Shown here: positions 31,583 to 33,369 of the stretch, piece after piece
Layout: the number at the start of each line of letters is the position of its first letter
Position numbering within the stretch: the first letter of the stretch is position 1
Source of the DNA: Escherichia phage EPIMRB01
Sequence record: PQ657784
DNA length: 64,000 nt
Strand: one strand, 5' to 3'
The notes under the pieces: generated by a model
The model's input: the letters and a program-made list of their open reading frames with translations, nothing else
The model's database searches: none
Told to the model about the DNA's origin: nothing
Program-made: the position numbers and the translations under genes

Positions 31583-31586
<4 letters not shown>

Positions 31587-32071
31587 TTTAATTTCCTGCA
31601 TTCAGTGATAAAGTTATTTAAATTTTGAGTATATTTCTTTTCATCAAAAATCTTTTGTTGTCTGCGTAGCCGCCATGGCATTTCAATGAACGTGTACCAT
31701 ATCCCAGATAATATTGCTGCTGTAAAAATATTAACAAGTATGGTTAAAAGAATCCAATCTCCTATTCTGTCCATTGGATTTTTTATAAAAAAGTAAAATA
31801 CGAATGATGTCACAGGAAGACTAATAATATACCACAGAATCATAATCTTATCTGTGAACCAATCAGCGTTCGTTAACTTAGCGCGACCATTATAAATACA
31901 CACGAATTTATCATCTGTTGCAGTAGATGGCTTAACTGGTTGATATCCCATTCTAAACTCCCTAATCAACAAATTTTTCATATCTTCGGAACAGCCATTC
32001 CAGTCAACTCTATCAACTGAAATGCCATCATCCACATCATCTAAATCATACCAGCGAGTTTTTAAAATCAT
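31583..32071 (-). CDS. Small membrane protein, 162 aa; member of a tandem paralogue family
   Basis: Two hydrophobic helices; C-terminal motif [10 protein letters not shown] shared with neighbours. Confidence 0.5.
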
Positions 32072-32430
32072 TTAATTTTCCTGCAATCGCTCACAAACTC
32101 TTTCATTGATTCATTTTCAATATAAGACATGTAGCTATTGTATTCTTTTAATTGTATTTTGTAATCCTTTTTTCTTTGCCAATTTATGTTAAAATTATCA
32201 TAATGAAAATATAGTATAGTGCCAAAGAATGAAAATAATGAAATCGCTATAGTAAAACGAAGTTCACTCCAAACCTCTGTTATAATTGCTGAACCATCGA
32301 TGTTTAAAATAATACAATCAATCATTAATCCAATAAGACTACCCGCAAGAGCTGCAAATACTGATACGGCAAGAATTAATAGTACCTCAGGAAACGAATA
32401 TTTGACTTTATTTAGTTTTGGCTTTTGCAT
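32068..32430 (-). CDS. Small membrane protein, 120 aa; tandem paralogue
   Basis: Two hydrophobic helices; C-terminal EFVSDCRKIK. Confidence 0.5.
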   Translation of the reverse strand: MQKPKLNKVKYSFPEVLLILAVSVFAALAGSLIGLMIDCIILNIDGSAIITEVWSELRFTIAISLFSFFGTILYFHYDNFNINWQRKKDYKIQLKEYNSYMSYIENESMKEFVSDCRKIK

Positions 32431-32792
32431 CGTGATTCCTTAACAAATTTCATAATTTCGTTAAATTCATACATATCTAGTTTAAGCTGGTGTTCCTTTT
32501 TAATCTTTTTACACTGAGCTTTCCATTCACGTACGCGTTTACGATAATGTCTTCCTTGATACCAGTATCCTACCCAATTTACAGGTACTAATAAAAATGG
32601 AACTATCATTGGAAGAATTAGTGTTGACACAAATATTACATCAAATTTATTAACAGTCATAACGTCTATAACCATTCCAGCTATAAATGATACAACTACA
32701 ACAGGACCTATTAATACATCGGTAGAAATTATCTGGCGCTTTAGTTCATACTTCAAAGGTTTACTTGGAAGGTATAGTGATGGCTTTGACAT
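32412..32792 (-). CDS. Small membrane protein, about 126 aa; tandem paralogue
   Basis: Two hydrophobic helices; C-terminal KFVKESRCK; start trimmed to an internal Met. Confidence 0.5.
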   Translation of the reverse strand: MSKPSLYLPSKPLKYELKRQIISTDVLIGPVVVVSFIAGMVIDVMTVNKFDVIFVSTLILPMIVPFLLVPVNWVGYWYQGRHYRKRVREWKAQCKKIKKEHQLKLDMYEFNEIMKFVKESRCKSQN

Positions 32793-33369
32793 ATTCTCTG
32801 CATTCCTTAACAAATTTTTCTAATAATAAATCGCTTTCAAAATTAGGATTTTCCACGAATTTATCAAAAAGATCATCAACAATAGTTAAGATATTCTTTT
32901 TACTAAGAATACGCTTATTTTCATATTTTGTTTCAGAGTCAACTATAAGAGTAAAGAAATATTTCTTTCCCTGAAATTTTACCGTAGTATCAATATAAAA
33001 TAAATTTGACTTTTGTAAATTACGTTTAAACCCTGCGTCACTTAAACTGTAAACGCCAAGATAATCATAATCGTCGTTTAAATAACAAACTGTCCATTCA
33101 GGGGAAACGAAATCAGTAAATTCAACATCAAAATCACACGTCAATGAATGAATTGATTCAATACTTTTAATGAGTATTCCAGGGCGTATTAAAGACTTTT
33201 TACCTCTATAAAATCTTCCAGAAAGACTTTCATCAGTTTCATATGAAGACCCCCAATAGTAATTACGTCCTTCTGCCATACGTTTAAGAGCATTTAGTAA
33301 TTGGTCTGGAACATCAACCTGTCTTTGGAACTCTTCAAACATTGAATTGAAATCATTTTGCATTCTCAT
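32761..33369 (-). CDS. Hypothetical soluble protein, 202 aa, carrying the same C-terminal motif as the downstream membrane paralogues
   Basis: C-terminal EKFVKECREYVK. Confidence 0.5.
   Translation of the reverse strand: MRMQNDFNSMFEEFQRQVDVPDQLLNALKRMAEGRNYYWGSSYETDESLSGRFYRGKKSLIRPGILIKSIESIHSLTCDFDVEFTDFVSPEWTVCYLNDDYDYLGVYSLSDAGFKRNLQKSNLFYIDTTVKFQGKKYFFTLIVDSETKYENKRILSKKNILTIVDDLFDKFVENPNFESDLLLEKFVKECREYVKAITIPSK

Follow-up and report, generated by a model that had tools for sequence, protein, structure and literature searches.

The stretch of DNA analyzed here (64,000 nucleotides of Escherichia phage EPIMRB01, sequence record PQ657784, hereafter the window) belongs to a Tequatrovirus, and the approximately 3 kb around the genes of interest share 100% identity with Escherichia phage AUBRB02 and 90-98% with hundreds of Tequatrovirus genomes. 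Synteny with phage T4 identifies these genes as e, nudE, e.2, e.3, e.4, e.5 and e.6, all on the minus strand. What the products of four of them, e.2 to e.5, demonstrably share is a short C-terminal module, here called the tag, with the consensus [LIV]-E-x-F-[IV]-x-[ED]-C-[RK], which is found on e.2, e.3 and e.5 and, in a variant form, on e.4. The sequence comparisons described below show that the tag is kept by selection on the peptide. The four genes and their tag-coding segments are as follows.

31583-32071, minus strand: e.2, 162 amino acids (open reading frame (ORF), T4 synteny, phrog_2203 'membrane protein')
31592-31621, minus strand: tag-coding segment of e.2 (LNNFITECRK)
32068-32430, minus strand: e.3, 120 amino acids (ORF, T4 synteny)
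32077-32106, minus strand: tag-coding segment of e.3 (MKEFVSDCRK)
32412-32792, minus strand: e.4, 126 amino acids from the ATG, 133 with a TTG start (ORF, T4 synteny)
32427-32456, minus strand: tag-coding segment of e.4 (IMKFVKESRC)
32761-33369, minus strand: e.5, 202 amino acids, soluble (ORF, T4 synteny)
32794-32823, minus strand: tag-coding segment of e.5 (LEKFVKECRE)

The strict form of the motif, F[IV].[ED]CR, has three matches among the six-frame segments of at least 40 amino acids in the window, and these are the C-termini of e.2, e.3 and e.5; the looser pattern [FW][IVL]..C[RK] has four matches in the whole T4 genome, of which three are e.5, e.3 and the remnant of e.2. A positional test of the looser pattern over 43,572 amino acids of sense-strand ORFs, drawn from the window plus 11 loci of various T4-like genera, places 30 of the 31 matches within 16 residues of the C-terminus, a zone that makes up 13.6% of the positions by chance (binomial P 2.7e-25). 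The lone exception, in an RB43 protein encoded two genes past e.6, stops 24 residues short of the protein end, and all 31 matches, over the 12 loci, are encoded downstream of e.6. A preliminary description of this DNA had noted that three consecutive membrane proteins and the 202-amino acid protein upstream of them end in a related motif; the likeness is well beyond chance, and the tails as first written there (KFVKECREYVKAITIPSK among them) match the actual gene ends. The comparison with the T4 genes e.2-e.8 that was called for at that point identifies the genes in question as T4 e.2, e.3, e.4 and e.5.

The tag columns are the invariant columns in each family alignment, and the hydrophobic positions of the tag (i, i+3, i+4, i+7) fall on one face of a helix. 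The tag is predicted, from this pattern and from a low-confidence AlphaFold2 model of e.5 (predicted local distance difference test score, pLDDT, 55) in which the terminal helix, residues 181-196, bears LLEKFVKECREYVK, to be a short amphipathic helix. In orthologues of e.4, Ser, Ile or Val takes the place of the tag Cys, which fits helix packing better than obligatory thiol chemistry. The number of codons between the tag and the stop varies from 0 to 24 across the loci (10-14 residues in e.5), and the basic tail ends recorded among the carriers are CRKIK, CRKLK, CRK, CRGK and CRRARK.

Other identities considered for the tag were rejected. Obligatory Cys chemistry is at odds with the e.4 orthologues that lack Cys, and a cleavage site of the T4 prohead protease (L/I-x-E) with the P1 residue, which is not consistently Glu. 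A rhodanese-type 'sulfurtransferase' signature, suggested by the label on some e.3 and e.4 GenBank records, was likewise rejected; we suppose that these labels may stem from the likeness of CRK to the rhodanese active-site CRKG. Literature searches by the gene names e.3, e.4 and e.5 found nothing relevant.

The regions compared include those of ten named phages, among them T4, RB69, SP18 (Gaprivervirus), IME281 (Dhakavirus), Klebsiella/Raoultella phage K65, Enterobacter phage myPSH1140 (Karamvirus), Aeromonas phages Riv-10 and Assk, and RB43, together with four IMG/VR contigs and three metagenomic contigs with e.6 just 48-51% identical to that of T4. An IMG/VR search for related loci yielded 9 loci, and a word-indexed homologue search with e.3 yielded close relatives only. 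Over these regions, the tag is found on at least eight otherwise unrelated protein families, and at least four of the families carrying it are soluble. The soluble carriers comprise the product of the gene after e.6 in every lineage, K65 gp49, SP18 gp135 and a 131-amino acid Karamvirus protein, whereas further two-helix carriers include RB69 ORF133c, Mosigvirus e.2, K65 gp45 and gp46, the products of four tandem genes in Karamvirus, and two to four proteins per metagenomic contig. The proteins in the e.5 position illustrate how little else may be shared, given that a BLASTP alignment of T4 e.5 with its JS98-type counterparts covers just 7% of the query.

The order of the genes is conserved as well: e.6 is followed by a soluble tag protein, two to four tag proteins with two transmembrane (TM) helices, a Nudix hydrolase and lysozyme, and this order holds in Tequatro-, Mosig-, Gapriver-, Dhaka- and Karamvirus, in Klebsiella phage K65 and in the three metagenomic contigs. 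In the Aeromonas phages and RB43, only e.6 and the soluble tag protein are retained. The e.6 gene stands directly upstream of the tag genes in the window and in 12 further loci, and all T4-like genera examined have this arrangement.

RB69-, JS98- and Karamvirus-type phages and Aeromonas phages encode, in this same hyperplastic region, another tandem family, whose members are small and soluble (65-115 amino acids). Its members end in W-x-S-S-(x0-3)-C at the very C-terminus (e.g., GAWVSSSAMC, GGWVSSSSEC and VWYTSSC) and are encoded, in the numbering of the compared loci, at L003 3357-4152, L004 3691-4959, L006 3351-4593, L017 6299-6825, L016 1954-2509, L019 538-1077 and L025 5976-6495; the family is absent from the window and from T4.

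Kyte-Doolittle hydropathy in 19-residue windows, the basis of all topology calls made here, identifies e.2, e.3 and e.4 as three consecutive two-helix membrane proteins, as originally proposed, and answers the objection, raised at the same time, that TM helices might be lacking. The hydrophobic segments span approximately residues 76-96 and 103-129 of e.2, 9-51 and 57-75 of e.3, and 20-50 and 49-76 of e.4, with hydropathy maxima of 2.2-2.5, as against only 0.85 in e.5; the same method detects no hydrophobic segments in e.5, e.6 or nudE. These three proteins and their relatives have a common layout of two TM helices, a basic patch and a tail of 35-50 amino acids. In e.2, an acidic, presumably cytoplasmic N-terminal domain of 75 amino acids precedes the two helices, the basic stretch RLRRQQK and the tagged tail; in e.3, a Lys-rich N-terminus is followed by the helices, the basic stretch QRKKDYK and a tail ending in MKEFVSDCRKIK; and in e.4, the helices are followed by the very basic juxtamembrane stretch RHYRKRVREWK and a tail ending in IMKFVKESRCKSQN, a variant of the tag without Cys at the canonical position. 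Given the Lys/Arg-rich N-termini and the basic stretches after TM2, the positive-inside rule predicts hairpins with both termini in the cytoplasm and cytoplasmic tails of 35-50 residues, so that e.2-e.4 have, as far as hydropathy tells, the properties of small integral inner-membrane proteins with a cytoplasmic tail. We take the both-ends-in topology of the e.3 and e.4 hairpins to resemble that reported for PspC of Yersinia. Searches of Pfam (E<=1), NCBIfam and PHROGs with e.2-e.5 identify no informative family, and PHROGs assigns the four proteins to four separate families of unknown function.

The repeated local duplication that the preliminary description saw behind the similar gene ends stands for one pair of genes at most. 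Profile-profile comparisons of e.2 with e.3, of e.2 with e.4 and of e.5 with e.3 align only the last 10-15 columns (with the probability of 93%, 6% and 34%, respectively), whereas hhalign aligns e.4 with e.3 over 52 columns with the probability of 89%. When the tag is trimmed off and a database of 686 ORFs is searched, e.3 and e.4 remain reciprocal best non-self matches (E 0.006 and 0.014; K65 gp45, E 0.005), and the trimmed profiles of e.2 and e.5 find no links in the same database. By this faint sequence similarity, e.3 and e.4 are probably old paralogues; e.2 and e.5 are linked to them by the tag only, and a tandem duplication family is only weakly supported.

The carriers could nevertheless all be diverged members of one paralogue family, with the tail as its slowest-evolving remnant, soluble carriers arising via recombination at the junctions, and no common role of the tag other than in local folding or at the membrane surface, e.g., as an amphipathic helix on the inner leaflet. 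The tag-independent e.3/e.4 match and the common layout of e.2-e.4 and their relatives are in line with such an origin, and the junction repeats described below could mediate the exchange. However, a functionless remnant would not be invariant in every family, with Phe, Cys and Arg kept despite synonymous change and in lineages where e.6 is down to 48% identity; helices at the membrane surface are usually loose in sequence whereas the tag conserves an acidic residue, Cys and Arg; and the four or more soluble carrier families are not accounted for. All this makes common descent a quite unlikely explanation of the tag.

The likeness of the gene junctions at the DNA level, also remarked on before, is real and can be traced to two pairs of repeats.

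31586-31603, minus strand: junction repeat GAATGCAGGAAATTAAAA, covering the end of e.2, an AGGAAA Shine-Dalgarno sequence and the nudE start region
32071-32088, minus strand: junction repeat GATTGCAGGAAAATTAAA, covering the end of e.3, a Shine-Dalgarno sequence and the ATGA overlap with the e.2 start
32435-32450, minus strand: junction repeat AAATTTGTTAAGGAAT, encoding e.4 residues K-F-V-K-E, with AAGGAA 5 nucleotides upstream of the e.3 ATG
32802-32817, minus strand: junction repeat AAATTTGTTAAGGAAT, encoding e.5 residues K-F-V-K-E, upstream of the e.4 ATG

In the window, AAATTTGTTAAGGAAT occurs exactly twice against 0.01 occurrences expected, and GAWTGCAGGAAAWTWAAA occurs twice (31586-31603 and 32071-32088) against 0 expected. 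The genes of the block e.5-e.4-e.3-e.2-nudE overlap by 32, 19, 4 and 19 nucleotides, respectively, and the tag codons AAG-GAA or AGG-AAA stand 5 nucleotides from the next ATG at three junctions and 10 nucleotides from it at the e.5/e.4 junction. To judge from these sequences, the tag codons clearly also provide the overlapped downstream gene with its Shine-Dalgarno sequence, and the likeness of the junctions consists largely of motif codons plus the downstream ribosome-binding site.

It is therefore conceivable that conservation acts at the nucleic acid level, the tag codons being a Shine-Dalgarno and coupling region as well as a recombination cassette, and the peptide a by-product. The spacing of AAGGAA and AGGAAA, the overlaps of 4-32 nucleotides, the two repeat pairs and a junction in an IMG/VR contig that looks like a recombination product (see below) all speak for such a constraint, as does the role of repeats in other T4-type indels. 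The variation of the tag, however, is mostly at synonymous sites: among 23 distinct DNA instances, Phe is encoded by TTT in 17 and TTC in 5, Cys by TGC in 14 and TGT in 9, and Arg by six codons (AGA 6, AGG 6, CGT 4, CGA 2, CGC 2, CGG 1). The e.5-like genes of SP18 and IME281 keep FIAECRE with the codons GCT GAA TGT CGT/CGC, i.e., without the Shine-Dalgarno bases. The tag is also present where no overlapping gene follows, as in K65 gp49 and SP18 gp135, which are followed by intergenic DNA, and in Riv-10, where the next start is 68 nucleotides away. Finally, the spacing is not fixed: 17 to 26 nucleotides separate the tag from the next ATG and, as noted, 0 to 24 codons separate it from the stop. 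Tags free of Shine-Dalgarno bases or of overlaps and the variable spacing imply that the Shine-Dalgarno sequence cannot be the main constraint on the tag. A constraint on the nucleic acid is very improbable as the explanation and, as the sole cause, is largely refuted; the persistence of the motif without an overlapping downstream gene also disposes of the earlier concern that it might be an artefact of overlapping reading frames.

The junction repeats coincide with the end-points of gene loss. In an IMG/VR contig (L007, 4375-5174), e.2 is missing, exactly between two TGCAGGAAA junction repeats: e.3 ends in ...CRKLK, the ending of e.2, and then runs straight to nudE with the e.2/nudE junction sequence, the very structure that recombination between the two TGCAGGAAA repeats would be expected to leave. 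In a Mosigvirus contig (L012, 4340-4520), the body of e.3 is lost, and the 3' tail, ...NFIKECRK, is kept along with the junction to the next gene. The e.2 gene of reference T4 (L001 2153-2461, T4 67472-67960), annotated as 102 amino acids, contains two compensating frameshifts, a base lost in an A-run and a base gained later, and the C-terminal ...NFITECRK is still readable in frame despite them. The re-sequenced T4 record MT984581 also aligns to e.2 in two pieces, and e.2 of the window phage is intact at 162 amino acids. Repeated cassettes known as PeSLs drive insertions and deletions in T4-type phages, and the mobile PeSL cassettes resemble the repeats described here, as seen in L007, in that short gene-boundary repeats lie at indel end-points (PMC2839356, PMC4122927). 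PeSLs are, however, intergenic promoter/stem-loop units, whereas the repeats at this locus are coding (tag codons, Shine-Dalgarno sequence and start), with the encoded peptide under selection; since they lie inside coding sequence and contain no promoter/stem-loop unit, they are not PeSLs.

The genes and features that flank the tagged block are listed next.

33411-34004, minus strand: e.6, 197 amino acids, a divergent PspA/IM30 protein (ESCRT-III superfamily) by remote similarity, the conserved upstream neighbour and proposed partner of the tag
33388-33408, minus strand: GC-rich UUCG hairpin between e.6 and e.5, GGGGCTTCGGCCCC (coding strand), without a T-run
31146-31601, minus strand: nudE, Nudix hydrolase, the last gene of the overlapped block, with its start inside the e.2 tag codons
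30614-31108, minus strand: e, lysozyme (T4 synteny)

The UUCG hairpin sets e.6 apart from the overlapped block e.5-e.4-e.3-e.2-nudE. In T4, the RNA of all five genes e.2-e.6 is early, and the proteins fall into the early (e.4, e.5), middle (e.2, e.6) and late (e.3) expression classes (PMC9697503, supplementary files 4 and 6); assignment to such classes in a proteome time course implies that e.2-e.6 are real proteins. The T4 records annotate e.2-e.4 as 'predicted membrane protein', and PHROGs likewise labels e.2 'membrane protein'. Public GenBank labels for e.3 and e.4 include, besides 'sulfurtransferase', 'phosphoserine phosphatase', 'DNA primase' and 'terminase small subunit', and some records label e.6 'host specificity protein'; scans of Pfam, NCBIfam and PHROGs with e.3, e.4 and e.6 back none of these labels, which look like propagated annotation errors.

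The e.6 gene, found in 1106 phage records, surpasses its neighbours by far in conservation, with a mean column identity of 83% in a five-lineage alignment. The family is narrow: an exhaustive profile search finds just 46 representative clusters among 1.84 billion proteins, and all members with a visible source come from T4-like phages. The sequence of e.6 from the window has no match in Pfam or the PDB. Among 31 diverse family members, however, four match Pfam PF04012 at E<=0.01 (best E 8.9e-10), with the member P0164 scoring 35.1 bits against a cutoff of 33.9, so that membership of the window protein in this family is transitive. A search of the PDB with the 31-member profile retrieves Vipp1/PspA chains first (E 1.8e-4 to 1.7e-3), colinear over residues 1-146. 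The predicted structure of e.6 consists of an N-terminal helix, a long alpha1/alpha2-3 hairpin and short C-terminal helices, a layout of the ESCRT-III type that it shares with PspA/IM30/Vipp1, and the top 8 Foldseek matches of the model are Vipp1/PspA. These profile and model comparisons suggest that e.6 is a divergent PspA/IM30 protein. The link is corroborated here and is not new: it was noted once, in the genome announcement of phage Metamorpho, where HHpred related the e.6 homologue to E. coli PspA with the probability of 99.9% (PMC7862958), and was never studied. A connection of e.6 with the tagged neighbours is absent from the literature searched.

The C-terminal helix of e.6 (residues 186-196) fits, post hoc, the same heptad pattern as the tag, and the Tyr and Leu in this helix rank with the best-conserved columns of the family. 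In T4, the correspondingly widened pattern [LIVM]xx[FYW][IVL]xx[CL][RK] occurs at the C-terminus only in e.3, e.5, e.6, rIII and one spurious ORF. The match in rIII (T4 130785-131033, seen in L023) is at the exact C-terminus, ...VRHFVVTLK, and may be due to chance; rIII, as we understand it, acts at the cytoplasmic face of the inner membrane.

A possible reading, tentatively favored here by analogy with bacterial systems, is that the tag serves to dock its carriers on one common partner, which would most probably be e.6, and that e.2-e.4 are inner-membrane anchors or regulators. Under this proposal, the tag on e.2-e.5 would dock to the partner, the two-helix proteins e.2, e.3 and e.4 would anchor or regulate the polymer of PspA-like e.6 at the inner membrane, soluble e.5 would act as a cytoplasmic regulator or competitor, and the module as a whole would, early in infection, maintain or reshape the inner membrane of the host. 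As a post hoc lead, the tag may occupy the site that helix alpha5 of the adjoining subunit uses in ESCRT-III-type polymers. A secondary effect is the use of tag codons as Shine-Dalgarno sequences and, as short direct repeats, their coincidence with the end-points of e.2 loss. A more elaborate and rather doubtful version holds that T4-type phages would possess their own Psp-like membrane-maintenance system, in which changeable clients would be attached to e.6 via a portable 9-residue, alpha5-mimicking helix. The composition envisaged for it, with one soluble client and two to four inner-membrane hairpins whose tags would dock on the e.6 hairpin, is doubtful to the same degree.

The analogy starts from the small membrane partners that recruit bacterial PspA-type proteins to the membrane: LiaI anchors LiaH, and PspB/C are the partners of PspA (PMC9239133). 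In the LiaI-LiaH system of Bacillus and the PspB/PspC-PspA system of enterobacteria, as here, small inner-membrane proteins (approximately 100-160 amino acids) with cytoplasmic tails are encoded beside a PspA-family gene. The differences are that LiaI, PspB and PspC have no sequence match to e.2-e.4 (Pfam, NCBIfam), that the present module is phage-borne and early in infection, and that several parallel partners and a soluble one all bear the same C-terminal tag, with e.6 binding predicted by analogy. To our knowledge, such a shared tag on bacterial Psp partners has not been described. Comparable C-terminal docking peptides exist elsewhere, e.g., clamp-binding peptides and the C-terminal peptide of FtsZ, in which approximately 9 conserved residues at or near the C-terminus of otherwise unrelated proteins attach numerous clients to a single hub; this likeness, too, is one of analogy, the sequence here being different and all clients coming from one gene cluster.

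Several observations weigh against docking to e.6. The contact between the tag and e.6 is conjectured by analogy, and the analogy itself consists of architecture and neighborhood, e.2-e.4 matching no PspB, PspC or LiaI model; the model of e.5 is poor (pLDDT 55); and the likeness of the e.6 C-terminus to the tag emerged post hoc, from a widened pattern to which rIII and a spurious ORF conform as well. Common history and co-transcription, rather than function, could account for adjacency in a hyperplastic region of T4. Furthermore, e.2 is present in 533 phage records compared with 656 for e.3 and 689 for e.4, is absent from about one in ten Tequatrovirus records and is disrupted in the laboratory strain of T4, and one Mosigvirus has an internal deletion in e.3, which indicates that individual members are dispensable.

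Alternatively, the tag might be a recognition signal for a host factor or another phage factor rather than for e.6, e.g., a degron or adaptor signal (of the ClpXP, FtsH or Lon type) that would set when early proteins are removed, or a handle for a cytoplasmic protein of the host. Each two-helix protein might then have a task of its own, such as to exclude superinfecting phages, to block membrane-based defence or to control when lysis occurs. The tails end in the basic residues listed above, which loosely recall MuA-type C-terminal ClpX signals; the RNAs are early and the timing of the proteins differs; members are gained and lost individually, as accessory host-interaction genes are; and small early proteins with two TM helices, such as T4 Imm, act in exclusion according to their annotation. 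However, a signal of this kind leaves unexplained why every carrier is encoded downstream of a PspA-like gene over 13 loci, the residues that follow the tag in e.5 argue against a free C-terminal degron, and there is neither a similarity to Imm (E 0.44) nor a match to any defence, anti-defence or lysis family. On balance, a partner other than e.6 appears unlikely, if far from negligible.

The roles suggested in the preliminary description, namely superinfection exclusion, immunity or a holin/antiholin function, find no support. Imm of T4, like other early membrane proteins of this size in T-even phages, resembles e.2-e.4 in being small, early, non-essential and variable, with two hydrophobic segments, but the match of a tag-trimmed e.3 hidden Markov model to the T4 imm ORF (E 0.44, 6 bits, in a database of 686 proteins) is noise, and Imm has no tag; we know of no exclusion phenotype of e.2-e.4. 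The late expression and endolysin coupling that define a holin are not seen either, since the e.2-e.5 RNAs are early and only the e.3 protein is late (PMC9697503). T4 encodes its holin, t, and its antiholins, rI and rIII, at other places in the genome, e.2-e.5 match no holin family, and the sole feature that supports a holin is the adjacency to e, with nudE in between. The conserved context of a PspA-family gene points to a membrane-maintenance module rather than to exclusion or a holin.

Upstream of e.6, two further features of the window deserve mention. An ORF of 176 amino acids (34048-34578, minus strand), starting with MSLYTELNETSEK..., occupies the position of T4 e.7 (111 amino acids), and its N-terminus resembles those of the JS98-type proteins in the e.5 position (MSLYTDL...) and of a Mosigvirus-type ORF in L010 (MSLYTELNKKSE...), a hint of recombination at gene starts as well as at gene ends. 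Identical 24-nucleotide terminator-like hairpins, AGCCCCGACCGAAAGGTTGGGGCT plus a T-run, at 35109-35132 and 35667-35690 (minus strand) flank an ORF of 157 amino acids (35139-35612), an arrangement like that of a cassette bounded by repeats. The product of this ORF starts with MKSYAQFLNEA, presumably similar to the capsid-targeting N-terminus of T4 internal proteins.

Of the results described here, the genes as long-annotated hypothetical ORFs and the PspA-likeness of e.6 were already known; what is new is the existence of the C-terminal tag, how strictly it is confined in position and genomic location, its occurrence on eight or more otherwise unrelated families, and the conserved order of e.6, soluble client and membrane clients. 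T4 is the best-studied virulent phage, and yet e.2-e.6 are still 'hypothetical'; the present analysis makes of them a concrete, testable module. If the tag indeed docks e.6, the polymer could be anchored, capped or regulated by whichever tagged proteins a phage carries, and docking would explain how the phage keeps or reshapes the host inner membrane and the proton-motive force after DNA injection and during superinfection. This would amount to an undescribed mode of linear-motif recruitment for a bacterial-type ESCRT-III protein and to a new early function of T4, would offer a minimal, genetically tractable system for the recruitment of ESCRT-III-like polymers to membranes by short peptides, and would provide a sequence rule for finding clients, namely a tag near the C-terminus of a protein encoded downstream of e.6. 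Even if the partner is a different one, the retention of one peptide by at least eight otherwise unrelated families, and in several phage genera, points strongly to an interaction hub.

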